A model generated the notes under the pieces. That model ran no database searches, was not told the origin of the DNA, and saw only the letters and a program-made list of their open reading frames with translations. A DNA stretch of 64,000 bases from NCBI GenBank assembly GCA_030619885.1, contig JAUXAN010000003.1, positions 21,958 to 85,957 of the forward strand, written 5' to 3'. The number at the start of each line of letters is the position of its first letter. The first letter of the stretch is position 1. The DNA is from a bacterium (GTDB lineage Bacteria; Hydrothermota; DG-26; JAUXAN01). This document shows, one piece after another, positions 794-15,003 of this stretch. A program made the position numbers and the translations under genes.

Positions 794-951
794 ATGAAAT
801 ATCCTACAATCAGAGACATGGCATGAGTAAAAAAACGAGAAAACGGCTAATGAAAAAAGGTCTCGAAACCCTAATGGACTCCGAACTTTTGGCAATTCTT
901 TTGGATTCAGAATATAAAGAGAAAAAACAAGCAAGGAGAGAAACATGGTAG
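794..951 (+). pseudogene. radC: RadC/JAB family N-terminal remnant (frameshifted, truncated)
   Basis: 794: MKYPTIRDMA*; frame from 823: KTRKRLMKKGLETLMDSELLAILLDS, matching the RadC N-terminal pattern (RPRERLLxxGxxxLSDxELLAILL); ends at 951, overlapping the next ATG. Confidence 0.75.
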
Positions 952-2522
952 TTAAAAAACTGTCAGTTAGAGAAGAAGAATTCAAGAAGTTTAACATCAC
1001 TGAAGAGCAATTTGGTCCGGTGATGCTTAGCAGATTGGGTAAGGGTCTATATAAAAATTCTTTACATTGTGTTCGTGAATACATTCAAAATGCTGTGGAT
1101 GGAATTAACAAGTTCAATAGGGAATTTCCCGATGATCCAACAGACAAGATCATTAGAATTCAGGCTGAGGGTGATACTATAATTTTTCATGATAATGGAA
1201 TAGGTATGAATAAAGAAGATATTCTTACAGCCATAAGCTTTGGAGTTTCTCTAAAAGAAAGAATATACGACGCTGGTTTTTTGGGAATCGGTATTTTTTC
1301 TGGCGCTGCGATTGCTGATAGGTTACGAATATATACTACCAAGAAGGATGAGGTGAAGGCATTGGTGTTTGAAATTGACTTCAAATACATTGACAAAAAT
1401 TATAAAGAGTACACAAGTGGTCTGAAATTATTGAGGGATGCAACTCAATTTCAAGAAGTGGATGAAGACGAAAACAAACACTATTGCGAAGCCACTCTTT
1501 ATGTAAATAAAGAATATCGATCTTTGCTTAAAAATGATGCAGAGATTAGACGATATATTTCGAATGTTTGTCCAGTAGATTTTCCAGATGAGTTTGAATA
1601 CAAACCAATTATTACCGATTTTTATAAAAAATATGAAATAGAAGATCAAATTTTTGACATTCGATTAAATAAGATTCCCGTTTATCGACCATTTCCAACG
1701 AAAGTTAAAGAACCTGAATTTAAAGAGGTAATACACAAAGGTAAGCGATTGGCTGTATATTGGTACTGTGAAAATAAAAAGAAAGGTGTCATTGAAGGAA
1801 AAGAGAAAAAGAACGAAGATGATATAAGATACATAACTTATAGGTGGCGCAATTTCTTGATAGATGATCCTGACAGGCGAGATTATGCTGCTAGAGAGTT
1901 ATTTAGAGGAAGACCTGAATTGATGAAAAATTATTTTGGAGACATTCATATATTGGACTTGGAGGATATTGAACCTGATTTGGAGAGAACAGGAGTTAGG
2001 CACACAGACACATATAAGCAATTTAAAGGTAGTATTAGAGATAGAAAAAATCCTAACAATATATTACTACTCTATGACCAAGCACACGATGTATCTAAAC
2101 AAAAAACGTTGATGAAGGAAGTTGAAAAAGTCGAAGAAATTTGTAATAAAATCAATGAAAGAAAGCTTCCAACTAAGACGGAAGAACTTTATAAGAAAAA
2201 ATTTGAAATCGAGGAACAGAAAAAGAATATAATGAAAAGGAAAAGGGAGAGCAGGGGCAGGGCTTATGATAAACTTTCAACTCCCGAAAAACAAAAGGTA
2301 GAAAAAAGCATAAAGAAATTAGAGAAGAAAGAGAAGAAAATAGAAAAGCATATTGTTGAATCACAGAAGGATAGGACCAAACCCAAGGAACCCCGTTTTG
2401 ATTCCAAGATTGAGATAAAAATTGAACAGGTATTAAGGATTCTTAAAAGACATCTTAAGAATCATGCAACTCTTTATAATGCTATTATTAAAGATTTAGA
2501 AGCGTTGGTCAAAGGCAAGTAA
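945..2522 (+). CDS. GHKL (HSP90/MORC-like) ATPase with C-terminal coiled coil
   Basis: GHKL motifs VREYIQNAVD, HDNGIGM, GFLGIG; K/E-rich helical C-terminus. Confidence 0.85.
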   Translation: MVVKKLSVREEEFKKFNITEEQFGPVMLSRLGKGLYKNSLHCVREYIQNAVDGINKFNREFPDDPTDKIIRIQAEGDTIIFHDNGIGMNKEDILTAISFGVSLKERIYDAGFLGIGIFSGAAIADRLRIYTTKKDEVKALVFEIDFKYIDKNYKEYTSGLKLLRDATQFQEVDEDENKHYCEATLYVNKEYRSLLKNDAEIRRYISNVCPVDFPDEFEYKPIITDFYKKYEIEDQIFDIRLNKIPVYRPFPTKVKEPEFKEVIHKGKRLAVYWYCENKKKGVIEGKEKKNEDDIRYITYRWRNFLIDDPDRRDYAARELFRGRPELMKNYFGDIHILDLEDIEPDLERTGVRHTDTYKQFKGSIRDRKNPNNILLLYDQAHDVSKQKTLMKEVEKVEEICNKINERKLPTKTEELYKKKFEIEEQKKNIMKRKRESRGRAYDKLSTPEKQKVEKSIKKLEKKEKKIEKHIVESQKDRTKPKEPRFDSKIEIKIEQVLRILKRHLKNHATLYNAIIKDLEALVKGK

Positions 2523-2523
2523 G

Positions 2524-3471
2524 ATGATAGATGTTTTTACTGGAGGTCCAGTTAAGGATAAAATAAGAAAGGAGTTGGATGCTCCACTTATAAAAGAGGT
2601 TAGTAAAGACGGAAAAGAAAAGTTGTCATATTTTGGCCTATCTGGTCCATTGCTCTATGATATTATCGAATGGCAAGACTACTTGAAAGACTTTACAGTA
2701 GTTGAGGAAAGTTATACTGGAAGAAAAGAAAGGAGTATGGAAAGAAACCGCCAAGAGTTACTTCTAAAGAATTCTTTTATTACACAATTACGAGATGGTA
2801 GAGGAGTAATCAATGATTTTCTTGCAGTAATATACGGAGACATTGATAGAGATATCATTCTAAAAGGCAAAGGAGATTTTGGTAAGGAATTACCAAGACA
2901 ACAGTTTGGGCTTATATATCTAGACTACTATGGCGGTATCTTCAAAGCCAAACACAGAGAAGATGCAATCAAGAAACTTATTTCCAATCAGAAAGAAATT
3001 TCTGAAAAGGATTATGATTACGTTTTGCTCATTACAGTGGAAAATTTGGATAAAGGAGAGGCAGAAAAAAGGAAATTAGCGAATGAAATATTGGATAATT
3101 TAAAAAATGCTCGAGTAGAAAATGGGTCTATAGAGAACTTTAATAAGTTTTTACAGGGTTGTAGATATGGGTTATTGCAGAAAATATATGTTCCTATCCA
3201 GATATATTTGTATACAAAGTTTTGTGGAGATGGAATAAAATTTTATGAACCTGTTATTTATCAAGAGAATAAAATCGAGATCAAGAAAAGTGCCGAAATG
3301 CTTCATTTTAGATCTATTATTTCAATTCAGAAAGGAAAAAGGACAACCACGCCTTTAATCAAAGATATAGTAGGTATTTGTAATTTGAAGCTTCTGACTG
3401 TAGAAAATGGTAAAATTGTTCCATACAAAGAGCAATTTCCTGAATTATACCTAAATAAGAAAGCACAATGA
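2524..3471 (+). CDS. Hypothetical protein, putative divergent class I SAM-dependent methyltransferase fold
   Basis: Strand order LSYFGLSG / FTVVEE / VIYGDID / LIYLDYYG / YVLLITV resembles a Rossmann MTase; starts 1 nt after the ATPase stop. Confidence 0.5.
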   Translation: MIDVFTGGPVKDKIRKELDAPLIKEVSKDGKEKLSYFGLSGPLLYDIIEWQDYLKDFTVVEESYTGRKERSMERNRQELLLKNSFITQLRDGRGVINDFLAVIYGDIDRDIILKGKGDFGKELPRQQFGLIYLDYYGGIFKAKHREDAIKKLISNQKEISEKDYDYVLLITVENLDKGEAEKRKLANEILDNLKNARVENGSIENFNKFLQGCRYGLLQKIYVPIQIYLYTKFCGDGIKFYEPVIYQENKIEIKKSAEMLHFRSIISIQKGKRTTTPLIKDIVGICNLKLLTVENGKIVPYKEQFPELYLNKKAQ

Positions 3472-4616
3472 AAAAAAATGTTCTACTTGTTGAACCAGCA
3501 TATAAGAACCCATATCCTCCTTTGGGTATGATGAAAATTTCAACATGGTATAAGAGAAAGGGAAATGATGTCCAGTTTATTAAAGATACCCTCCATAGTC
3601 CCGAACTCGATCGTTTTGATAAGAAAAGGATGTGTTACAAGAAACTCAAGGATTACTATGATATTATATATATAACAAGTTTGTTCACATATCAAGCCCA
3701 TTATGTTATTGCTTCAACAAATTACTACAAAAACAGGTTCCCTGATACTCAAATAAAAGTGGGGGGGATCATGGCAACCCTCATGCCAGAACATATCGAA
3801 AAAAAGACTGGCATAAAACCGCATATTGGGCTACTCCGAGGAGCTGAAAACTGTCCACCAGATTATTCTTTGTACCCTAACCTAGAATATTCGATCACTT
3901 TCACAACTAGGGGATGTCCTAGACATTGTCCTTTCTGTGCCGTAAGGAAGCATGAACCAGAGTTTATTTTAAAAGAAAATTGGTTGGAAGACATTGACAT
4001 TACAAAAAAGGGCATAATTTTCTGGGATAATAATTGGTTTTTTTCACCCAATTTCGAAAAGGATATTAAAAGGCTTATTGAATTTCAGAAAGTAGGAATA
4101 ATCCAAATTGATTTTAATCAAGGTCTAGATTGCAGATTATTTGATGAAGATAAAGCCAAACTTTTGAGCAAAGTAAAGATTAATCCACTGAGATTTGCAT
4201 TTGATAATTGTTCAGAAGACAAATATATACAGAAAGCTATACAGTTGGCTCAAAAATGTAGATTCAAAGACATAAGGGTTTATGTCTTATATAATTTTGA
4301 AGATAATAACGATACACCAGAATACTTTTATTATAGAATCAATGAACTGAATAAATTGGGGGTACTGACATATCCAATGCGTTATCGTCCTTTTAGTCTC
4401 AATGGTCAGTATGTCTCTCCCAAATGGGATAAACAACTGCTAAGGGCTCTAAAATTATCTCTTATGTTCTATTATACGAAAGGAATGATTAGAAAAAGCC
4501 GAGAAGCTTTTAAAGATATCTACGGAAACAATGCTAATGAATTTAAGAATAAATTATATAAGATATATGAGAATGATAAATTAAAAAATAAAAACAAAAC
4601 TGAGGACATAAATTGA
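3468..4616 (+). CDS. Radical SAM protein with N-terminal cobalamin-binding-like domain
   Basis: TTRGCPRHCPFC (CxxxCxxC); N-terminus VLLVEP..YPPLGMMKIS..IYITSLFT..VGG typical of B12-binding radical SAMs; ATGA overlap with the upstream gene. Confidence 0.85.
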   Translation: MKKNVLLVEPAYKNPYPPLGMMKISTWYKRKGNDVQFIKDTLHSPELDRFDKKRMCYKKLKDYYDIIYITSLFTYQAHYVIASTNYYKNRFPDTQIKVGGIMATLMPEHIEKKTGIKPHIGLLRGAENCPPDYSLYPNLEYSITFTTRGCPRHCPFCAVRKHEPEFILKENWLEDIDITKKGIIFWDNNWFFSPNFEKDIKRLIEFQKVGIIQIDFNQGLDCRLFDEDKAKLLSKVKINPLRFAFDNCSEDKYIQKAIQLAQKCRFKDIRVYVLYNFEDNNDTPEYFYYRINELNKLGVLTYPMRYRPFSLNGQYVSPKWDKQLLRALKLSLMFYYTKGMIRKSREAFKDIYGNNANEFKNKLYKIYENDKLKNKNKTEDIN

Positions 4617-4689: not shown

Positions 4690-5727
4690 ATGGGAAAGGT
4701 GAAGGCAACAAGAGAAATATATGAAGGCACATTGCCATTGCTAATACCTGAAAAGGTAAAGCCTGTCAAGCTGCCTATCCGAATAAAATACAAGGAATAT
4801 CCAATGCTTGATGGGTCAAGAAAAAATTTAGTTCAACAGGTTGGAGATGGAGCAATTATCAAGCGATTCGAAAAAACACCAGTGCCTCAAAAGAAAATAG
4901 ATGTAGTATGCCCACATTTTCTTGAACTAAAATGGGCTACTGGTTGTCCTTACGACTGTTCGTGGTGCTACCTAAAAGGGACTTTCCGCTTTTTGCCTTA
5001 CAAGACTAAACCCCATATAAAAGATTTTGATAAGATTAAAAAACATACTCAAGTGTTCTTGGAATATGTCGAAGAGCCTGAAATCTTAAATACAGGTGAG
5101 TTAGCAGATTCACTAATGTATGAAGGAAACAAAAAATCGTTTGTAAATTTTATAGTCCCTTTATTTGAAAATAAAAGTAAACATAAGGTCCTTTTCTTAA
5201 CCAAATCAGATAGAATACAGAATCTCATGAAACTTGATTCTCATAAGCAAGTAATAACAAGTTTTAGCTTGAACGCCATCCCTGTGGCTTGTAAGTGGGA
5301 ACTTAAAGCCCCGTCTGTAAAAAGACGAATAAAGGCCGCAAAAACACTTTATGACGAAGGATTTGAGGTAAGAATACGTATAGATCCTATGGTTCCTATA
5401 GAAAATTGGGAGAAATTATATCTTGAGTTAATTGACGATTTATTTGATTCACTTATACCCGAAAGGATAACTTTGGGTTCTCTTCGTGGATTACAAAGCA
5501 CTATCAACGGGGCAACAGATACATCATGGGTTAAATATCTTTCAGAATATTCAAATTGGGGTAAAAAAATAGATATAAATTCAAGACTTGCTATGTATAA
5601 AAATCTTATTTCATATCTACAAAAGAAACACAATTTTACCAAAGTAGCTTTTTGTAAAGAAAGCGTAGCTGTATGGGAAATACTCAAATTGGATTACAAA
5701 GAAATAAGATGCAACTGTGTTTGGTAA
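4690..5727 (+). CDS. Spore photoproduct lyase-like radical SAM protein
   Basis: ATGCPYDCSWCYL, NTGELADSL, FLTKS and IRIDPM motifs typical of the SplB family. Confidence 0.8.
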   Translation: MGKVKATREIYEGTLPLLIPEKVKPVKLPIRIKYKEYPMLDGSRKNLVQQVGDGAIIKRFEKTPVPQKKIDVVCPHFLELKWATGCPYDCSWCYLKGTFRFLPYKTKPHIKDFDKIKKHTQVFLEYVEEPEILNTGELADSLMYEGNKKSFVNFIVPLFENKSKHKVLFLTKSDRIQNLMKLDSHKQVITSFSLNAIPVACKWELKAPSVKRRIKAAKTLYDEGFEVRIRIDPMVPIENWEKLYLELIDDLFDSLIPERITLGSLRGLQSTINGATDTSWVKYLSEYSNWGKKIDINSRLAMYKNLISYLQKKHNFTKVAFCKESVAVWEILKLDYKEIRCNCVW

Positions 5728-5739
5728 AAAGGATAAACT

Positions 5740-6837
5740 ATGGTTGTTAAAGAAACAATATGGAAGATTGAAGCACATACACAAGCGAAGCACGCCGTAT
5801 TGGACAGATATCTGAAAGCTTGGCTTCCCATAATGAGTAAGTGGAATGGTCGGATTCTTTATATCGACGGTTTTGCAGGGCCAGGTAAATACTTTGATGA
5901 GGAGAATTTGCCAACTATCGATGGGTCTCCACTCATTGCCCTTAATGCAGCAAGAAAACATAAACTTCAGCTAAATGCAGAAATAGTATTCCTTTTTATT
6001 GAAGCAAGACATGATAGGTGTGAATATCTTAAAAGCCTGCTTGAATCAATAGATATACCTAAAAATATGAGATACGAAGTAATAGAAAGCAAATTTGACG
6101 AAACTCTCTCTTCCTTGCTTGATTATCTTGATGAACAGAAGAAAAGGCTTGCTCCAGCTTTCGTATTTATTGATCCATTTGGCTACTCGGATACTCCTTT
6201 TTCACTCATTAAACGAATAACAGAAAATAAAAAATGTGAGGTGCTTATCACATTTATGTATAGTTTTATTAAAAGAGCACTTACTAAATCTGACCAAGAA
6301 GGACATTTAGATAGACTTTTGGGAACTCAAGATTGGAGAAAGGTTCGTAATATCAATATTCCTCTAAAGAGAAAAGAATTTATTCAGCAACTTTATAAGA
6401 AACAACTGGAGGAAGAAGCAAAAATAAAATATGTCCGATTCTTTGAAATGATCAATAAATTCAACCAAACTGAATATTTCCTTTTCTTTGGAACCAATAA
6501 TCTTGAGGGACTTAGACAAATAAACGCTGCCATGTGGAAGGTTGATCCAAAGGGCACATTTCAATTCTCGGATAGAACAAATCCTAACCAAACAGTGCTC
6601 TTCACTCCTGAACCTGACTATAATTTACTTAAAAAGTTAATTGTCCGAGAATTCAGGGGTAAAACAGTTCCAGTTGAAGAAATTGATGAGTTTGTTTTAA
6701 TATCTGGGTTTACTCATTTCAAAAGGAATATTTTGAAGCCAATGGAAAAAGCAAAACCTCATGAGATAGAAATAATTGAGAGCAGTAGGGAGCGGAAAGG
6801 AACTTATCCTCCGGATTCACTTATTAAGTTTTTATGA
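5740..6837 (+). CDS. tcmP: Three-Cys-motif partner protein (TcmP family, methyltransferase-like)
   Basis: HTQAKHAVLDRYLKAW, YIDGFAGPG, FIDPFG, YFLFFGT...MWKVDP signature motifs. Confidence 0.88.
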   Translation: MVVKETIWKIEAHTQAKHAVLDRYLKAWLPIMSKWNGRILYIDGFAGPGKYFDEENLPTIDGSPLIALNAARKHKLQLNAEIVFLFIEARHDRCEYLKSLLESIDIPKNMRYEVIESKFDETLSSLLDYLDEQKKRLAPAFVFIDPFGYSDTPFSLIKRITENKKCEVLITFMYSFIKRALTKSDQEGHLDRLLGTQDWRKVRNINIPLKRKEFIQQLYKKQLEEEAKIKYVRFFEMINKFNQTEYFLFFGTNNLEGLRQINAAMWKVDPKGTFQFSDRTNPNQTVLFTPEPDYNLLKKLIVREFRGKTVPVEEIDEFVLISGFTHFKRNILKPMEKAKPHEIEIIESSRERKGTYPPDSLIKFL

Positions 6838-7043
6838 CTTGGGTAAAAATTATGAAGGCAGATAATACAGAAGTTAAAAACAAATTTTCTGAAAGGCCAA
6901 AGTTACTTAATCGCCCACGTTGTTATACTTACAATCCAAAAGACGGCTGTTTGTATTGCGGGAATAAAACTTTCCGGTATTATTCTTCTGTATTTGGGAA
7001 AAAGTACTATCAATGCGAAAAATGCGGGGGTATAAATCATTAA
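6834..7043 (+). CDS. Small Zn-ribbon protein
   Basis: CLYCG...YQCEKCG; ATGA overlap with the tcmP stop. Confidence 0.55.
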   Translation: MTWVKIMKADNTEVKNKFSERPKLLNRPRCYTYNPKDGCLYCGNKTFRYYSSVFGKKYYQCEKCGGINH

Positions 7044-8603: not shown

Positions 8604-9617
8604 ATGAAGGTAAAAGAAATCGCCAGAGCTGTTGAAGGAAGATTGATAGGAAATGGAACCATTGAGATAGAAAATGTTGTGCCTATCAAAGAAGCAAAGA
8701 AAGGGGATATTACTTTTTTTCATGATAAGAGATATATCAAATATTTGCATAAAAGCAAGGCATCTTGCATAGTCGTTCCACAAGGGATGGAAGAGCTAAC
8801 GACTACAGTCATAGAAGTAAAAAATCCTGCCCTTGCCTTTGCCAAAATTCTAAACTTTTTTGCTCCTCAAAAGAAAATGGAAAAGGGGATACATAATACT
8901 GCAATCATTGGAAAGAATGTATCTATCCACAAGACCGCATCTATTCAAGCCTTCTGTTGCATCGGTGATGATGTGAGAATTGAAAAGGGTGTCTGTATCT
9001 TCCCTTATGTCTATGTCGGTTCAGGAACTACGATAAGGGAAAACTCAAAGATTTATTCCAATGTAACAGTTAGAGAAAACTCAAAGATAGGAAAGAGGGT
9101 GATAATCCATTCTGGAACTGTAATAGGTTCGGATGGCTATGGATATGTGAAGGGCGACGGTCATCATCGCAAGATTCCACAGATAGGAAAAGTAATAATT
9201 GAGGATGATGTCGAGATAGGTGCCAACACCGCTATAGACCGTGCAACCCTCGGCGCTACAGTGATAGGGCGAGGTACGAAGATAGATAATCTTGTCCATA
9301 TAGGTCATAATGTAAGAATAGGAGAAAATTCGCTCATAATCGCCCAGGTTGGAATATCTGGCAGCGTAGAAATCGGTAAAAATTGTGTACTCGCAGGACA
9401 GGCAGGTATTAGTGACCATATAAAACTTGGAGATAATGTAATAGTTGGGGGTCAGGCAGGGGTTACAAAATCTTTCCCGTCCAATATGAAAATCTCCGGT
9501 TATCCTGCAAGACCCCACTCCGATGCGCAAAGGTCTTATGCAACTATTTCAATGTTGCCTGAACTGCTGCATAGATTGAAGAATCTGGAAAAAAAATATG
9601 CAGAGAACATTAAATAA
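8604..9617 (+). CDS. lpxD: UDP-3-O-acyl-glucosamine N-acyltransferase (start moved to MKVKE)
   Basis: Hexapeptide repeats, [18 protein letters not shown]. Confidence 0.95.
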
Positions 9618-10881
9618 AAAAGGTTCTTTTACTGGAACGGGGCTTCATACAGGAAACAAGACGACCATAACCTTTAATCCATCCCCAGATGATAGTGGAA
9701 TCAAATTTGTGCGGACAGACCTCAAAGATAGACCCGTCATTGAAGCAGACATTGACCATGTAGTGGAGACTGATAGAGGAACGACCATATCTTTAAATGG
9801 CGTAAAAATCCACACGGTCGAACATGTGCTTGCGTCTATATCTGGTCTTGAAATTGATAATGTGAGAATCGAACTGAACGGTTCTGAACCACCTGTCGGC
9901 GACGGAAGTTCTCTACCATTTGTTGATACGATAAAAAAGGCAGGCATTAAAGAAGGGCAGAAAGAAAGGGACTATTATGTAATTCGCAAACCTTATGTTT
10001 TTTCCGATGGTGATGTTCATATAGTTGCAAATCCCGCAGATAACTTGAAAGTATCGTTCACAATAGACTACCCGAATCCTATAGTGAAATCACAGTATAT
10101 ATCCCTGTCAATAGACCCGAAGACTTTTTCGAAGGAAATCGCACCTGCAAGAACTTACTGTTTTGCTGAAGATGTGGAGAGGCTGAGAAGTAAGGGGTTG
10201 ATAAAAGGCGGAAGTTTTGATAATGCAATAGTAATAACAAAAGATGGTTTTATGAACGAAACACCACTCAGGTTTCCCAACGAGTTCGTGCGGCACAAAA
10301 TAATTGACCTTCTTGGTGACCTGGCACTCTTGGGTGGTCCTCTCAATGCCCATATAATCTCTATAAAATCCGGCCATAGAACTAATGTTAAATTTATACA
10401 AAAGTTAAAAAAATATGTTCAAAAAGAAAAAGCTGGATCTTTTGATATTTCAAATATACTCGAAGTTATGCCTCATAGATACCCTTTCTTGCTCGTTGAC
10501 AGAATCATTGAACTTGAACCCAAAAGGGTTGTTGGGATAAAAAATGTCACTTTTAACGAACCTTACTTTCAAGGACATTTCCCTGGAGTGCCGGTAATGC
10601 CTGGTGTGCTCATTGTAGAGGCGATGGCTCAGGTAGGTGGGTTTCTTCTACTCCACTCGGTAGAGAAGAAAGAGAACAAACTCGTCTATTTTGTAGGAAT
10701 AGATGGGATAAAATTCAGAAGACCTGTGAAACCTGGGGACCAAATCAGGTTTGAACTCAATCTACTTAAACACAAGGCAAGGATGTACAAGATGTCAGGG
10801 CATGCATATGTGGATAATCACTTAGTATGCGAGGGCGAACTTCTTGCCCAGGTAGTGGAGAAACCAGATGGAAATAGATAA
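9598..10881 (+). CDS. lpxC: Bifunctional LpxC/FabZ
   Basis: [22 protein letters not shown] (LpxC) fused to [27 protein letters not shown] (FabZ). Confidence 0.95.
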
Positions 10882-11638
10882 GACAGCGATCGTAAGCTCT
10901 GAAGCGAAACTCGGAAAGAATGTGAAGATAGGTCCATTCAGCACCATCGATAAGAATGTAACCATTGGTGATGGAACTAAGATAGGTCCGAACTGCCACA
11001 TAACTGGATGGACAGAGATAGGGAAGAATTGTGATATCTTACACGGGGTGGTAATCGGCAATCCACCACAGGATGTGAAATTTAAAGGTAAAAGGAGTTT
11101 TTGCGTCATAGGAGATGGAAACATGGTAAGGGAATATGTGACGATCCATAGAGGTTCGGACTATGAGAGTAAGACGGTAATAGGTTCCAGTAATTTTTTA
11201 ATGGCATATTCACATGTCGGACATAACTGCAACATTGGAAACGGCATAATACTCGCAAACGCAGCTAACCTCTCTGGATATGTTGAGGTAGAGGACTTTG
11301 CCTTCATATCAGGGCTTGTTCCTGTCCATCAATTCGTGAGAATAGGCTGTTACTGTATGATCGGAGGTGGTTACAGAGTACCAAAAGATATTGTTCCATA
11401 TTCACTTGCAGGTGGTTATCCGATCCGCATATGTGGGCTCAATACCGTGGGTCTGAAACGGCACAAGTTTAAAGCCGAAATAAGAAATATACTGAAGGAG
11501 GCATACAAGATAATATTTTTTTCCAACCTCAATACGCATCAGGCGATTGCAAGGGCAAAGACAGACCTCCCACAGAGAGAAGAGGTAAAACATCTGATAG
11601 AATTTATTGAGAATTCTACCAGGGGTATCGTAAAATGA
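10868..11638 (+). CDS. lpxA: Acyl-ACP--UDP-N-acetylglucosamine O-acyltransferase
   Basis: PPQDVKF, REYVTIHRG, HVGHNC, VHQFVRIG. Confidence 0.95.
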   Translation: MEIDKTAIVSSEAKLGKNVKIGPFSTIDKNVTIGDGTKIGPNCHITGWTEIGKNCDILHGVVIGNPPQDVKFKGKRSFCVIGDGNMVREYVTIHRGSDYESKTVIGSSNFLMAYSHVGHNCNIGNGIILANAANLSGYVEVEDFAFISGLVPVHQFVRIGCYCMIGGGYRVPKDIVPYSLAGGYPIRICGLNTVGLKRHKFKAEIRNILKEAYKIIFFSNLNTHQAIARAKTDLPQREEVKHLIEFIENSTRGIVK

Positions 11639-12747
11639 ATAAAAAGTTAGAACTGGATGCAGTCTTAGAAGATATGGTTAAAAGGGAAGGTTCTGACCTT
11701 CATTTGAAAGTGGGAGAACCGCCTATGTACAGAATATTTGGAAAGCTTACCAGAAGCAGGTTTCCAATAGTAGATGACGAATCGATTAACAGGATGATAT
11801 ACGGTATTCTTACAGAAGAGAGGAGGGAGAGGTTCGAAAACGAGTCTGAATTGGACCTCTCATATGAAATTCTTGACTTTGCAAGATTCAGGATGAGTGT
11901 CTTTCGCCAGAGTGGTCACATAGGTGCGGTCTTTAGATATATACCTTTAGAGATTAAGAGCATAGATGATTGGGAACTGCCTCCTGTGTTGAAAAGACTT
12001 GCACTTCTACGAGGTGGACTCATCCTCGTAACCGGGCCAACGGGTTCAGGCAAATCTACTACCCTCTCTGCAATGATACTCCATATAAATGAGAGTGTTC
12101 GCAGACATATCATAATTATAGAAGACCCTATAGAATTTCTTCACAAGGATATAAAGTCTACCATAGAACAGTTAGAACTGGGTATAGACACCCTTTCTTT
12201 TGCCGATGCTTTGAAGTCGGTAGTGCGTCAATCACCCGACTTGATAATGGTGGGTGAGGTAAGAGATCTGGATACTTTGAGAGAGGCATTGAATGCTGCA
12301 GAGACAGGACATTTAGTGCTGGCTACCTTGCACACTGCCGATGCTTCCCAGACTGTTGATAGAATCGTAGATATGCATCCCCCAGGTGAGATACACAAAG
12401 CCCGACTGCAACTATCGAACACCCTTCATGCAGTAATATCCGAATCTCTACTCCGAAGATTGGAGGGGAAGGGTTTGGTTGCTGCATTTGATATACTGAT
12501 ATGCACCGACGCTGTTCGTACCTGTATTAGAGAAGGGAAAACCCATCAGATACCTTCAATAATTCAGACGGGGACAAAATTTGGAATGCAACTTTTGGAT
12601 GACAATTTGAAGGAACTCTATCTCAACGGTATTGTTGCCTATGATGAGGCGTTATCAAAATCGTCCAATCCGGATGATTTTGAGAAAAGCGTATCAAAAC
12701 CTGCTTTTGCATCACTTAAGGAGCGTGTAAAGGATGGAGCTGGCTGA
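11635..12747 (+). CDS. PilT/PilU-family type IV pilus retraction ATPase
   Basis: GSDLHL, GPTGSGKSTT, IEDPIE, AAETGHLV..TLH. Confidence 0.9.
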   Translation: MNKKLELDAVLEDMVKREGSDLHLKVGEPPMYRIFGKLTRSRFPIVDDESINRMIYGILTEERRERFENESELDLSYEILDFARFRMSVFRQSGHIGAVFRYIPLEIKSIDDWELPPVLKRLALLRGGLILVTGPTGSGKSTTLSAMILHINESVRRHIIIIEDPIEFLHKDIKSTIEQLELGIDTLSFADALKSVVRQSPDLIMVGEVRDLDTLREALNAAETGHLVLATLHTADASQTVDRIVDMHPPGEIHKARLQLSNTLHAVISESLLRRLEGKGLVAAFDILICTDAVRTCIREGKTHQIPSIIQTGTKFGMQLLDDNLKELYLNGIVAYDEALSKSSNPDDFEKSVSKPAFASLKERVKDGAG

Positions 12748-13786
12748 GTTATTACTTACGATGCACCAGAATAAGGCATCTGACCTCATTCTGAAGGTGG
12801 ATAGTCCACCTCTCGTGAGGATAGATGGTGAAATCGTTCCGCTCGATATGGAAAGACTGAAACCTGTGGATGCATTGAATATCATGAAGAGTATAGCAGA
12901 TGAGAAACAGTTGGGTGTATTCAAAGAGAAGAAAGTAGTTGACATCGCATTTACCATACCAGAATTGGCGAGGTTCAGGGTGAATATATTTCGACAGAGA
13001 AAAAACATCGGGCTCGTATTTCGGCTAATTCCACTCCAGATTCCTAAGATTGAGGAACTCAATCTACCAAAAATCTTAACCGATCTTGTGTTGAGACCGA
13101 GAGGACTCGTGATTTTAACAGGACCTTCAGGTTGTGGTAAGTCGTTTACCATAGCAGGAATGATAGAATATAGAAACCAGAATAAGGAGTGTCATATAGT
13201 TACGATAGAGGACCCGATAGAATTTGTGTTTAAGGATGAGAAGGCTTTGATAAACCAGAGAGAAGTTGGAGGCGACACTCTTTCTTATTCGAGGGCACTG
13301 AAGGCTGTACTGAGGCATGACCCTGACTGTATAGTTATCAGTGAGTTGAAAGACCTTACGACTATCTCACAAACAATCACTGCTGCAGAGACAGGGCATT
13401 TAGTGCTGACTACCTTGCACACAGTAGGAGCTGTTCCAACGATAGAACGTCTAATAGATGTATTCCCAGGACATCAACAGCAGCAGGTAAGGATGCAGAT
13501 TTCAGCAAATCTGATTGGCGTTATAACACAGGTGCTGGTAAAAAAGAAGGAAGGAGGAAGAATACCAGCATTTGAGATACTGATTTCCACTGCTGCTATC
13601 AGGAATTTAATCAGAGAGGGAAAGACCCATCAAATAAACAGTCTTATACAGACGGGTCATAAATCAGGAATGATTCTTTTGAACCAATCTCTGGCGCAAC
13701 TTGTAAAAAGCAATGTAGTATCCACTGATGATGCACTCTCTGTCTCTTCTGACAGGACACAACTCCGCAGTTTAATCGGTGCGTAG
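12734..13786 (+). CDS. pilT: PilT-family retraction ATPase
   Basis: GPSGCGKS, TIEDPIE, AAETGH, AIRNLIRE signature. Confidence 0.88.
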   Translation: MELAELLLTMHQNKASDLILKVDSPPLVRIDGEIVPLDMERLKPVDALNIMKSIADEKQLGVFKEKKVVDIAFTIPELARFRVNIFRQRKNIGLVFRLIPLQIPKIEELNLPKILTDLVLRPRGLVILTGPSGCGKSFTIAGMIEYRNQNKECHIVTIEDPIEFVFKDEKALINQREVGGDTLSYSRALKAVLRHDPDCIVISELKDLTTISQTITAAETGHLVLTTLHTVGAVPTIERLIDVFPGHQQQQVRMQISANLIGVITQVLVKKKEGGRIPAFEILISTAAIRNLIREGKTHQINSLIQTGHKSGMILLNQSLAQLVKSNVVSTDDALSVSSDRTQLRSLIGA

Positions 13787-13962: not shown

Positions 13963-15003
13963 ATGAGAAAGATAAAAATAGGAGATAGGTTTATAGGAAA
14001 CGGCGAACCTATCTATATCATTGGAGAAGCAGGTGTGAATCATAACGGAAACTTGGATTTAGCCTTTGAACTCGTTGATATAGCAAAAGACGCAGGATGC
14101 GATGCGGTTAAGTTTCAGACATTCATTGCAGAAGATGTGGTTTCAAAATATGCCCCAAAAGCCCCTTACCAGAAAGCTCTCAACGGAAGTCAGTTAGATA
14201 TGGCAAAGAGGCTCGAATTGAAATTTGAGGATTTTAAAAAACTCAAAATATATTCCGATAAAAAGGGTATCACCTTCTTGTCTACTCCGTTCGATCCAAG
14301 AAGTGTCGACTTTCTTGATGAACTTGGGGTTCCCTTATTCAAAGTGGGTTCAGGGGAACTCACCAACCTTCCATTTCTAAAATACATTGCAGAAAAAAGA
14401 CGCCCTGTTATACTCTCAACGGGTATGTCCACACTTGGTGAGATAGAAGAGGCATTGGGAACGATCCAATCTGCAAAAAACGAAAATGTGGCACTTCTTC
14501 ACTGCACTTCAAACTATCCATCCACTCTAAAAAGTTGCAACCTTCTGGCTATAAAAACCCTTAAAGAGGTTTTTGATACACCTGTTGGCTACTCTGACCA
14601 TACATTGAGTCTATCGGTGCCTTCCGCATCAGTGGCACTTGGTGCATGCATTATTGAAAAACATTTCACAAAGGATAGAAATTTGCCGGGTCCAGACCAC
14701 CGTGCATCTGTGGACCCTTATCAATTAAAACAGATGGTATGTATGGTGAGGGAAACAGAAGAGGCACTCGGTTGTGCTTTGAAAAGGCCACAGGATGAAG
14801 AATTAGAAGTAGCAAAGGTAACACGCAGGTCAATAGTAGCTGCTGTGTGTATAAAAAAGGGCACAGAGATAAAAAGAGAGATGGTAACATTGAAAAGACC
14901 GGGATATGGAATGCCACCCAAGTTCCTAAAATTCGTTTTTGGAAGAACTGCGAAAAGAGATATTGCAAAAGATGAGATTATAAAATTGGAGGATTTGAAA
15001 TAG
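13963..15003 (+). CDS. neuB: N-acetylneuraminate synthase family (NeuB/PseI/LegI) with SAF domain
   Basis: EAGVNHNG, AVKFQ, STPFD, GYSDHT, IEKHFT, GPDH. Confidence 0.88.
   Translation: MRKIKIGDRFIGNGEPIYIIGEAGVNHNGNLDLAFELVDIAKDAGCDAVKFQTFIAEDVVSKYAPKAPYQKALNGSQLDMAKRLELKFEDFKKLKIYSDKKGITFLSTPFDPRSVDFLDELGVPLFKVGSGELTNLPFLKYIAEKRRPVILSTGMSTLGEIEEALGTIQSAKNENVALLHCTSNYPSTLKSCNLLAIKTLKEVFDTPVGYSDHTLSLSVPSASVALGACIIEKHFTKDRNLPGPDHRASVDPYQLKQMVCMVRETEEALGCALKRPQDEELEVAKVTRRSIVAAVCIKKGTEIKREMVTLKRPGYGMPPKFLKFVFGRTAKRDIAKDEIIKLEDLK

Follow-up and report, generated by a model that had tools for sequence, protein, structure and literature searches.

A recurrent cassette of a GHKL ATPase, a predicted methyltransferase-fold protein and a radical SAM enzyme beside a TcmP module

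The window analysed here, a 64,000-nucleotide stretch of bacterial DNA, contains a six-gene island with two radical SAM (rSAM) genes. The earlier note had proposed that an open reading frame of 315 aa (ORF315) is a distant paralogue of the three-Cys-motif partner protein TcmP, and that the island is a pair of modules, a methyltransferase followed by an rSAM enzyme and then the reverse. All six genes are read from the same strand, no more than 73 nt apart, and share one low-GC stretch (0.33–0.35, against about 0.38–0.45 further on), flanked by the housekeeping genes hisS, a HAD hydrolase gene, nth, and lpxD. Neither a tRNA gene nor a convincing pair of flanking direct repeats marks the island ends, and promoter-like and terminator-like sites are no commoner than in shuffled sequence. 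A RadC remnant, considered as a mark of the left end, was dropped (pairwise E 0.013; tblastn not significant). The evidence below corrects the annotation of the island, which is better read as two mobile modules independent of each other than as a single symmetrical system.

ORF315, its family and its predicted fold

ORF315 (2524–3471, + strand) encodes 315 amino acids from an ATG start. It begins 1 nt past the TAA of the upstream gene (945–2522), and its stop codon and the start of the downstream rSAM gene (3468–4616) overlap as ATGA. The overlap and the four motifs quoted in the earlier note are all present in the sequence and its translation: YFGLSG at residues 36–41 (nt 2629–2646), VVEE at 59–62, GDID at 105–108, and LIYLDYYG at 130–137. 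These are no chance strings, as they are conserved across 73 relatives. In the alignment of 73 family members from which all conservation counts are taken, Y36, G38, and D134 occur in every sequence. Position 61 is Glu in 65, Gln in 7, and Asp in 1; G105 is kept in 66; position 106 is Asp in 49 and Asn in 10; position 135 is Tyr or Phe in 71; and G137 and G138 are found in 65 and 62, respectively. Position 41 is more variable, with Gly in 57 and Ser in 14. Compared with a second copy at a locus denoted L001 (described below), ORF315 has 69% amino-acid identity and a dN/dS of ~0.16. ORF315 is a real gene under purifying selection.

Searching with a profile of the ORF315 clade yields 152 representatives at E ≤ 1e-3, which make up the whole superfamily. 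The NCBIfam model NF047698 matches ORF315 at E 1.9e-4 over residues 22–202 with 20.8 bits, below its curated cutoff of 200, and is matched at E ≤ 0.01 by 69 of the 73 relatives (best 4.1e-18). PF28273 (PP_RS20740) is found on 47%, 26%, and 94% of the members of the three nearest Atlas clusters. These profile matches place ORF315, divergent and on a long branch, in the uncharacterised PP_RS20740 family (NF047698; PF28273 according to the Atlas). The one paper found to name PP_RS20740, PMC9630843, treats it as a hypothetical protein and reports that overexpression of its V338F mutant raises furfural tolerance in Pseudomonas putida.

K11, Y36, G38, D46, W50, D134, and Y246 are invariant across the 73 sequences, and H261 and F262 are also among the invariant family residues that ORF315 retains. 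Outside the clade, 46 positions of the family show conservation of at least 70%; the clade keeps 35 of these, and G38, G41, E61, G105, D106, and the pair D134-Y135 are present in all 7 clade members within the family alignment. The other 11 positions are altered, including N132, N173, R175, and G253. At position 40 the clade has Ser or Ala in place of the family Pro, and ORF315 differs further from the rest of the family by an extra segment of ~30 residues between strands 2 and 3. Its branch is the longest internal one of the family tree (1.62 versus a median of 0.16). Because of the 11 altered positions and this long branch, ORF315 may have changed or lost activity.

The earlier note saw a Rossmann-like strand order in ORF315 and called it methyltransferase-like, and structure prediction bears this out. 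An AlphaFold2 model built from 73 sequences has a pLDDT of 92.6 and a pTM of 0.92; a model from 15 close relatives only (pLDDT 45.1) was discarded. A Foldseek search with the former as query matches at least 404 PDB chains at E ≤ 1e-3; those listed are all SAM methyltransferases, methyltransferase domains, or related enzymes, among them NNMT, INMT, M.TaqI, O-methyltransferases, TrmM, and Trm1. The TMq values are only 0.30–0.42, so the likeness is at the level of fold or superfamily. In BFVD, 47 matches reach E ≤ 1e-3; those with names are mostly methyltransferases of DNA, RNA, or the cap, including several DNA adenine methyltransferases. A model and a structure search that could have placed ORF315 outside class I thus failed to do so, and the protein is predicted with high confidence to have the class I SAM-methyltransferase fold.

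On the model, the motifs fall at the sites of class I motifs I–IV. Strand 34–38 leads into a Gly loop, Y36-F-G38-L-S-G41-P, at the position of motif I, which is degenerate relative to the textbook GxGxG. E61 closes strand 54–61, G105-D106 follows strand 100–104, and D134 closes strand 130–134. As modelled, ORF315 retains the SAM-site residues expected of class I enzymes (the Gly loop, E61, and G105-D106), and the invariant Asp-aromatic pair D134-Y135 occupies the position of catalytic motif IV.

Neither the clade profile nor the family profile of ORF315 has a significant match among PDB sequences, and ORF315 itself has none in Pfam, PADLOC, or PHROG. Curated methyltransferase families match 0 of the 73 relatives and 0 of 13 longer relatives by sequence, and these 13 carry no additional Pfam domain. 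The Atlas lead for ORF315 is Methyltransf_35, with a score of 0.93. Searches by tblastn with ORF315 and with the most central family member, P0019, gave no match in plasmid or phage collections.

A triad with an ATPase and a radical SAM enzyme

ORF315 is the middle gene of three, in the order GHKL ATPase, ORF315, rSAM, with junctions of 1 nt or overlapping. The GHKL-type ATPase (945–2522, + strand, 525 aa) combines a Bergerat ATP-binding domain at the N-terminus with a C-terminal half rich in Lys and Glu. Its match to Pfam HATPase_c_3 scores 32.8 bits against a gathering score of 25. NCBIfam gives weak HSP90/HtpG/sacsin matches, and a PDB sequence search returns TRAP1/Hsp90 N-domains at E 4e-4. 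No PADLOC model matches the ATPase at E ≤ 0.01, the best being an insignificant hit to ZorA (E 0.084); none of the three proteins matches a PADLOC model, and no nuclease or other effector can be recognised in the triad.

The third gene (3468–4616, + strand) encodes an rSAM protein of 382 aa with an N-terminal B12-binding-like domain. Its CxxxCxxC motif, C150-x3-C154-x2-C157, is found without exception in all 42 relatives. Both Pfam matches of the window protein lie below gathering score (Radical_SAM, 27.2 bits against 29.5; B12-binding, 23.3 bits against 32.1); among the relatives, at E ≤ 1e-3, Radical_SAM is matched by 39 of 42 and B12-binding by 30 of 42. The PHROG family phrog_9298, a “radical SAM domain protein”, matches it nearly full-length (E 1.7e-59, residues 4–336). 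No named NCBIfam family matches it, and PDB sequence searches with the single sequence and with its profile detect no relative. With the B12 match below gathering score and no solved relative, cobalamin use and methylation are assumptions.

Of the three proteins of the cassette, the rSAM protein is the best conserved and much the most widespread. It belongs to a virus-rich family of 4981 homologues at E ≤ 1e-3, far larger than that of ORF315 with its 152 representatives; the rSAM protein hence does not need ORF315. Each of the 119 relatives listed has an identity of 60% or more, and some come from sources named as archaea. Identities of 70–80% are seen among listed relatives from several bacterial phyla and from archaea, as judged by source name; the phage and plasmid homologues are 27–37% identical.

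The pairing of ORF315 with the rSAM gene is conserved elsewhere. A profile search of genome contigs with the close-clade ORF315 alignment found a single locus, L001, in which the three genes have the same order and tight junctions, with 62% (ATPase), 69% (ORF315), and 74% (rSAM) identity to those of the window. The dN/dS of the cassette genes against L001 is 0.05–0.16. The DNA similarity runs from 915 to 4535, where the L001 contig ends, and the upstream neighbours in L001 (RecG, DUF4837, an aminotransferase, and RadC) differ from those in the window. L001 is the one independent locus read for the cassette, and its contig ends within the rSAM gene. Metagenomes were approached by a proxy for co-occurrence, the exactly identical nucleotide size of the contigs of two relatives. 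In this measure, 6 of 14 ORF315 relatives match one of the 119 closest rSAM relatives in contig size, compared with 0.16 on average in a shift control. Among the 12 listed members of ten distant ORF315-relative clusters, none has a contig that is size-matched with those of the listed rSAM relatives, and none has one that is size-matched with those of the listed TcmP relatives.

L001 and the metagenome contigs, at least six by size identity, therefore speak for the coupling proposed in the earlier note. The unit is not a methyltransferase-rSAM pair, however: what is conserved, and recurs at a different chromosomal site elsewhere, is the triad with the GHKL ATPase. Complex prediction for the rSAM protein and ORF315 scored 0.00 in two runs without controls, which speaks neither for nor against binding.

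Further afield, the rSAM family is found in phages and plasmids. In four phage loci (L003, L006, L011, and L012), as in Bacteroides and Selenomonas plasmid loci, the rSAM gene stands without an annotated ATPase or DGQHR neighbour. An HMM scan of L003–L006 and L010 turned up no GHKL ATPase and no ORF315-like gene (L011 and L012 were assessed by annotation only), and the ORF315-family HMM has no member in the 9 plasmid or phage loci scanned. In one Bacteroides phage, the neighbours are exonuclease VIII, NinB, a helicase, VRR-NUC, a replication initiator, and a DNA methyltransferase. All four alphaproteobacterial plasmid loci examined (pNL1 and others) carry a DGQHR protein, the rSAM protein, and a GHKL ATPase, together with PIN-like, SNF2/DEAD-helicase, or ParB genes. 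On these plasmids the rSAM gene stands between that of the DGQHR protein, which is DpdB/DndB-like, and that of the ATPase. Homology between the triad ATPase and the GHKL ATPases flanking the rSAM gene on pNL1 extends along the length of the triad protein (E 2e-21 and 7e-14). The plasmid DGQHR proteins match PADLOC DpdB (E 7e-11 and 1.6e-17), and the helicase matches ZorD/DpdE.

A literature search, with subscription journals outside its coverage, found no account of a cassette of ATPase, ORF315, and rSAM, no description of the plasmid block among work on radical SAM with DndB, DGQHR, GHKL, or MORC, and nothing that matches the cassette among work on B12-binding radical SAM and defence systems. 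Passages in PMC10853773, PMC7159879, PMC3226654, PMC9723712, and the Tiamat preprint have no bearing on the cassette.

We tentatively read the triad as a tightly packed mobile DNA-modification or conflict cassette that is independent of the adjoining TcmP module, with a probability of roughly 0.45. Such a cassette would act on DNA. The rSAM enzyme would install the mark, possibly by radical methylation, a chemistry considered because of its B12-like domain. ORF315 would take the slot held by the DNA-binding DpdB/DndB-like protein in the plasmid version and would supply SAM-dependent methyl transfer, target recognition, or both. The GHKL ATPase may contribute an ATP-driven DNA-clamping or sensing step.

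The TcmP module and competing explanations

The triad is followed, after a gap of 73 nt, by a gene for a spore-photoproduct-lyase-like (SPL-like) radical SAM protein (4690–5727, + strand, 345 aa; Pfam SPL, 54.6 bits). Its matches to TIGR04070 and rSAM_mob_pairB are under cutoffs, and phrog_13321 matches at E 6e-10. Next is TcmP (5740–6837, + strand), which scores 226.2 bits against TIGR04474 (cutoff 53) and has a C-terminal wHTH-like tail. TcmP proteins are, by family name, encoded beside a “three-Cys-motif” radical SAM partner. With 1359 homologues, TcmP matches the PADLOC candidate PDC-M30A at E 8.2e-60 and is the sole match to PADLOC-DB 2.0 among the triad and TcmP; a PDB sequence search with its profile found nothing significant. 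A 69-aa candidate ORF (6834–7043, + strand) overlaps the TcmP stop. By eye, it is Cys-rich with zinc-ribbon-like Cys pairs, and it has no match in Pfam, NCBIfam, PADLOC, or PHROG. The SPL-like, TcmP, and zinc-ribbon genes appear to form a separate candidate-defence module that is a neighbour of the triad by chance.

If ORF315 were instead a diverged TcmP paralogue, the island could be a single system in which two mirrored modules of methyltransferase and radical SAM enzyme cooperate. There are likenesses that would fit. The six genes share strand, close spacing, and low GC; ORF315 and TcmP are of similar size, open with a helix bearing an invariant Lys, have a G-x-x-G-P type loop and, after the fourth strand, an Asp-aromatic pair followed by Gly, and each is encoded beside a radical SAM gene. 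In hhalign, the motifs of the ORF315 family and TcmP align in the same order over 123 columns (YFGLPGP with DGFAGPG, VE with IE, and LDYxGG with IDPFG). This collinear alignment fits a shared superfamily and proves nothing. Its score of 17.4 (E 0.19) is no better than that of the reversed profile (16.6) and lies inside the null of 40 column shuffles (mean 16.5, sd 2.5, max 23.6). BLASTP of ORF315 against TcmP gives E 2.5, TIGR04474 at E ≤ 0.01 matches none of the 73 family members, and the two proteins have no detectable sequence relationship. They differ in that TcmP has a C-terminal wHTH, which ORF315 lacks, and in their partners, SPL-like for the true TcmP and of the B12-domain type for ORF315. 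The proposal that the modules travel together finds no sign elsewhere: 0 of 14 ORF315 relatives lie on contigs size-matched to those of the 119 closest TcmP relatives, a single rSAM/TcmP coincidence in contig size (2429 nt) is within chance, and no TcmP-family member is found in L001–L010, although L001 ends before the point where one would lie. The paralogy drawn in the earlier note was not upheld, and a single mirrored system is very improbable.

Two further explanations keep the triad and change what it does. ORF315 could be a catalytically inert protein of the methyltransferase fold, serving the rSAM enzyme or the ATPase as a scaffold or as a subunit that recognises substrate or senses SAM/SAH. 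Its long branch would suit this, as would its altered residues, of which N132, N173, and R175 lie close to strands 4 and 5, and so would the degenerate motif I with Ser or Ala for Pro at position 40 and the slot it fills, which in plasmid cassettes belongs to a non-enzymatic DNA-binding protein. Retention of the expected SAM residues and D134-Y135 throughout the clade, and of K11, D46, W50, Y246, H261, and F262, argues against inertness, which is rather unlikely. The other explanation is that the triad does not act on DNA and makes or alters a small molecule, such as a viperin-like modified nucleotide, or that its target for methylation is a protein or peptide, as for some cobalamin-dependent radical SAM enzymes. 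Natural products, cofactors, or peptides are the substrates of most B12-dependent radical SAM enzymes that have been characterised. The structures that ORF315 matches best belong to N- and O-methyltransferases of small molecules (NNMT, INMT, TomG, and Rv0187), and Pfam and NCBIfam recognise no DNA-binding domain in the triad. But DNA adenine methyltransferases are also among these matches (M.TaqI, and several in BFVD), and four libraries identified none of the six island genes as biosynthetic, as a transport gene, or as encoding a precursor peptide. Where annotated, the neighbours of the rSAM family are DNA enzymes: replication and recombination genes in phage, and DpdB/DndB-like, ParB, SNF2-helicase, and PIN genes on plasmids. 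A substrate other than DNA is rather unlikely.

Significance and comparison with known systems

For the DNA-modification or conflict cassette, we infer that DNA is probably the substrate. If so, the chemistry of the rSAM enzyme would have little precedent. Its uncharacterised family is large and common in viruses. Phages carry it alone, on plasmids it is accompanied by a DpdB/DndB-like protein and GHKL ATPases, and in the triad its companions are a GHKL ATPase and a predicted methyltransferase-fold protein. Such a distribution is typical of DNA modifications used by hosts and phages alike. The PP_RS20740-like proteins, hypothetical in curated libraries, gain a predicted fold and a genomic partner. 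A more specific proposal, unlikely as it stands, is that rSAM enzymes of the phrog_9298 type write an undescribed DNA mark, for instance by radical, cobalamin-assisted C-methylation or another carbon-centred base modification. Bacteria and archaea would carry it in cassettes for self/non-self distinction. Reading or policing of the mark would fall to the GHKL ATPase, and direction of it to a DNA-handling partner that varies, ORF315 here and the DpdB/DndB-like protein on plasmids; orphan copies in phage replication modules would serve to disguise the phages' own DNA. If this were true, ORF315 would be the first PP_RS20740-family member with an assigned role.

Among known enzymes, the rSAM protein resembles the class B cobalamin-dependent radical SAM methylases in having a putative B12-binding-like N-terminus followed by a CxxxCxxC core. 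It is unlike them in its sub-gathering Pfam scores and in matching no named NCBIfam family, and at 382 aa it is presumably shorter than most characterised members. ORF315 compares with M.TaqI (2adm) and Trm1 (3axs) at the level of fold only (TMq 0.31–0.39). Amino-methyltransferases such as M.TaqI have the motif IV D/N-P-P-Y/F, and Trm1 has D-P-F-G. The invariant Asp-aromatic pair of ORF315 likewise lies at the end of strand 4, but its motif, L-D-Y/F-x-G-G, lacks the prolines of the M.TaqI/Trm1 type.

The phrog_9298 family is solitary in phage replication modules, whereas the rSAM gene of the window sits in a triad. The plasmid DGQHR blocks share with the triad a homologous rSAM protein (E 1e-53 to 1e-57 with the family profile) and homologous GHKL ATPases in tight operons. 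They differ in gene order, in the length of the rSAM protein (~540 aa), and in the third gene, which encodes a ParB-fold DGQHR protein on plasmids and a predicted methyltransferase fold in the triad. The plasmid blocks are accompanied by PIN-like, HEPN, helicase, and ParB genes, neighbours that recall the Dpd DNA-modification and restriction system.

The conserved cassette and its setting

The first 7 kb of the window form an island of six ORFs, all running in one direction, with housekeeping genes on either side: the 3′ end of hisS (3–476) to the left, and a HAD hydrolase, nth, lpxD, and a fused lpxC-fabZ to the right. GC content is 0.33–0.35 across the island, compared with ~0.38–0.45 past it. 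The series opens with a GHKL-type ATPase (945–2522; Pfam HATPase_c_3, 32.8 bits), the 315-residue ORF in question (ORF315, 2524–3471), and a radical SAM enzyme with a B12-binding-like N-terminal domain (rSAM, 3468–4616), together termed the triad. One base separates the ATPase stop from the ORF315 start, and the ORF315 stop and rSAM start overlap as ATGA. A spore-photoproduct-lyase-like radical SAM enzyme (4690–5727), TcmP (5740–6837; TIGR04474, 226 bits against a cutoff of 53), and a 69-residue Cys-rich ORF that overlaps the TcmP stop (6834–7043) make up a second compact module (4690–7043). Among PADLOC models, TcmP matches that of the candidate system PDC-M30A (E 8e-60) and its spore-photoproduct-lyase-like partner matches none; the Cys-rich ORF has no family match. 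Downstream of the island are the fused LpxC-FabZ (9598–10881; NF009667, 559 bits), two adjacent PilT-family ATPases (11635–13786), and a NeuB sialic-acid synthase (13963–15003). Between hisS and the island, imperfect direct repeats resembling TCTGATNNTCTGATGT occur as three copies in 52 nt (571–622); they could serve regulation or recombination, or have arisen by chance.

A scan of species-representative genomes found the triad once, on a metagenome-assembled genome contig (locus L001). Gene order and tight junctions there are as in the window, with the ATPase 62% identical, the ORF315 homologue 69%, and rSAM 74%. Nucleotide similarity (71.7%) extends from window position 915 to 4535, where the L001 contig ends within rSAM, so the right-hand end of the cassette falls outside L001. 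The L001 triad has RecG, DUF4837, an aminotransferase, and RadC as its upstream neighbours, which places it at a different chromosomal site. This DUF4837 gene and the LpxC-FabZ fusion of the window suggest a host of the Bacteroidota/FCB group. The full-length RadC (L001 5721–6416) lies directly 5′ of the ATPase. In the window, a 41-codon ORF (826–951, forward strand) that overlaps the ATPase start at 945 resembles the RadC N-terminus over an ELLAILL-containing segment; the likeness is weak (pairwise E 0.013, tblastn not significant), and DNA similarity to L001 begins only at 915.

As a proxy for co-occurrence, the nucleotide length of the longest contig given for each protein relative was compared between lists for exact matches. 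Six of the 14 ORF315 relatives had a value (4240, 6724, 6728, 9199, 10834, 20924) common to one of the 119 closest rSAM relatives, against an average of 0.16 matches in a shift control. No value was common to the 14 ORF315 relatives and the 119 closest TcmP relatives, and the rSAM and TcmP lists had a single short value in common (2429), which is within chance. From L001 and these matches, the conserved unit is very probably the triad, ATPase included, and we regard the triad and its mobility as established. The earlier note had described the island as a pair of modules, methyltransferase–rSAM followed by rSAM–methyltransferase. The coupling of ORF315 to rSAM holds elsewhere, in L001 and by proxy in the six relatives, but the unit takes in the ATPase and the TcmP module gives no sign of travelling with it.

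Family and predicted fold of ORF315

ORF315 has no match among Pfam, PADLOC, and PHROG models. Its single match in NCBIfam is weak: 20.8 bits (E 1.9e-4) to the “PP_RS20740 family”, whose cutoff is 200. A word-indexed protein search returned only 14 relatives, 57–83% identical and all without names. An exhaustive search of 1.84 billion representatives with a profile built from them brought the number to 152 at E ≤ 1e-3, of which 46 pass E ≤ 1e-10; a gap separates the ORF315 clade from the next matches, which are 27–32% identical. NF047698 is matched by 69 of the 73 aligned family members (E ≤ 0.01). Independently of those matches, the nearest neighbours of ORF315 in a protein-language-model Atlas are clusters annotated with PF28273 “PP_RS20740” (scores 0.96–0.97), with a “Methyltransf_35” cluster at lower rank (0.93). 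The longest internal branch of the family tree carries the ORF315 clade (1.62 substitutions per site, median 0.16), and dN/dS against the L001 copy is ~0.16. Thus, ORF315 is a real gene under selection and a divergent representative of a family that is catalogued but uncharacterised. In the sole paper found to name it, PP_RS20740 is a hypothetical protein (PMC9630843). Longer family members, P0027 (454 aa) and others of 338–363 aa, have up to ~170 residues beyond the core; a Pfam search of 13 such proteins detected no domain in the added parts.

The AlphaFold2 model reached a pLDDT of 45 with close relatives only, and 92.6 with a pTM of 0.92 from the 73-sequence alignment. Foldseek matched the model to at least 404 PDB chains at E ≤ 1e-3, and those listed are nicotinamide and indolethylamine N-methyltransferases, M.TaqI, O-methyltransferases, a precorrin methyltransferase, ArsM, cap methyltransferase domains, TrmM, and Trm1. 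Among predicted viral structures there were 47 matches at E ≤ 1e-3, the named ones being mostly DNA adenine, RNA, or cap methyltransferases. TM-scores are modest (0.30–0.42), so the likeness is at the level of the superfamily, with no close structural neighbour.

The motifs quoted in the earlier note are present in the translation as written (residues 36–41, 59–62, 105–108, and 130–137), and in the alignment and model the conserved residues of the family fall at class I methyltransferase motif positions. A glycine loop follows strand 34–38 (G38 in 73 of 73 sequences, G41 in 57); E61, glutamate in 65 of 73, ends strand 54–61; G105-D106 follow strand 100–104; and strand 130–134 ends at the invariant D134, next to which come an aromatic residue, Tyr or Phe in 71 of 73, and then Gly-Gly. 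The model, the structure matches, and the residue placement support the fold proposed earlier, and the class I methyltransferase fold predicted for ORF315 is very probably correct. The rest of the family has 46 positions with conservation of 70% or more; the ORF315 clade retains 35 of them and differs at 11, including N132, N173, R175, and G253.

The comparisons gave no support to the proposal that ORF315 is a distant TcmP-like paralogue. BLASTP between the two gives E 2.5, and TIGR04474 matches none of the 73 family members (E ≤ 0.01). The family profile scored 17.4 (E 0.19) in hhalign against a 41-sequence TcmP profile, compared with 16.6 for the reversed TcmP profile and a mean of 16.5 (sd 2.5, maximum 23.6) for 40 column shuffles. 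The 123-column alignment pairs motifs quoted in the earlier note with TcmP counterparts, in order, which is expected of two class I methyltransferases, yet is also within noise.

The radical SAM family on mobile elements

The wider finding concerns the radical SAM partner, which has 4981 homologues (E ≤ 1e-3). Of the 119 relatives listed (P0166–P0284), 102 are 70–80% identical and the rest 60–68%. Where named, their sources include Chloroflexi, Poribacteria, KSB1, WS2, Thermodesulfobacteriota, Altiarchaeales, and Promethearchaeota. Such identity across bacterial phyla and archaea suggests a recent and wide horizontal spread, probably carried by viruses or other mobile elements. The enzyme matches phrog_9298 (E 1.7e-59), its nearest Atlas clusters are rich in viruses and archaea, and tblastn finds it in 17 plasmid and 16 phage records at 27–37% identity. 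Sequence searches of the PDB detected no solved structure as a relative.

In the four phage loci read, the homologue lies in early or replication regions, with no annotated ATPase or DGQHR neighbour; the Bacteroides phage copy sits amid exonuclease VIII, NinB, a helicase, VRR-NUC, a replication initiator, and a DNA methyltransferase. Four plasmid loci of Alphaproteobacteria were also read, from pNL1 (L002, 57258–70481), Rhizobium, Roseomonas, and Bradyrhizobium (L007, L008, and L009). In each, a longer homologue (~540 aa) is flanked by a DGQHR/DndB-family protein on one side and a GHKL ATPase on the other. Nearby are PIN-like, second GHKL, SNF2/DEAD helicase, ParB, or DGQHR-HEPN genes. The window ATPase is homologous to the plasmid GHKL ATPases (E 2e-21, 7e-14), and in PADLOC the DGQHR proteins match models of DpdB while the helicase matches those of ZorD/DpdE. 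Across the ten loci with an rSAM homologue (L001–L010), a homologous GHKL ATPase occurs in five and an ORF315-family member only in L001, so rSAM and GHKL are linked in half of them while the third gene varies. The enzyme is clearly independent of ORF315.

Proposed activity and relation to known systems

The best explanation, a class I fold within a triad that acts as a DNA modification or conflict cassette, is tentative as a whole (probability roughly 0.45). The ATPase would clamp or sense DNA and rSAM would make the mark, its B12-like domain, whose match in the window protein is below the Pfam gathering score, suggesting radical methylation. ORF315 would take the position of a partner that handles DNA, and may also contribute an ordinary SAM-dependent methyl transfer. 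The established ground for this mechanism is the ORF315 fold with its conserved SAM-site residues, together with the DNA-enzyme neighbours of the rSAM family. Orphan phage copies alongside host cassettes are a known pattern for DNA modifications in self/non-self discrimination.

Against action on DNA, none of the triad proteins has a recognisable nuclease or DNA-binding domain, or a PADLOC match. A substrate other than DNA would also fit the small-molecule methyltransferases that are the best structural matches of ORF315, but the company that the rSAM family keeps with DNA enzymes makes it unlikely. It is similarly doubtful that ORF315 is an inert adaptor. Least probable are two mirrored modules, since the TcmP likeness is within noise and TcmP relatives have no longest-contig value in common with those of ORF315.

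NF047698/PF28273 and phrog_9298 are already catalogued, each with no assigned function. In the openly accessible literature, no description was found of a cassette of GHKL ATPase, methyltransferase fold, and rSAM, or of the plasmid DGQHR–rSAM–GHKL block. There is a small chance that the triad represents radical DNA modification of a new type; the known kind to which we rate it as belonging is the multi-gene SAM-enzyme/ATPase conflict or modification cassette. Like the triad, the plasmid block has a homologous rSAM and GHKL ATPase, whereas its third gene is DGQHR/DndB-like where the triad has the methyltransferase-fold ORF315.
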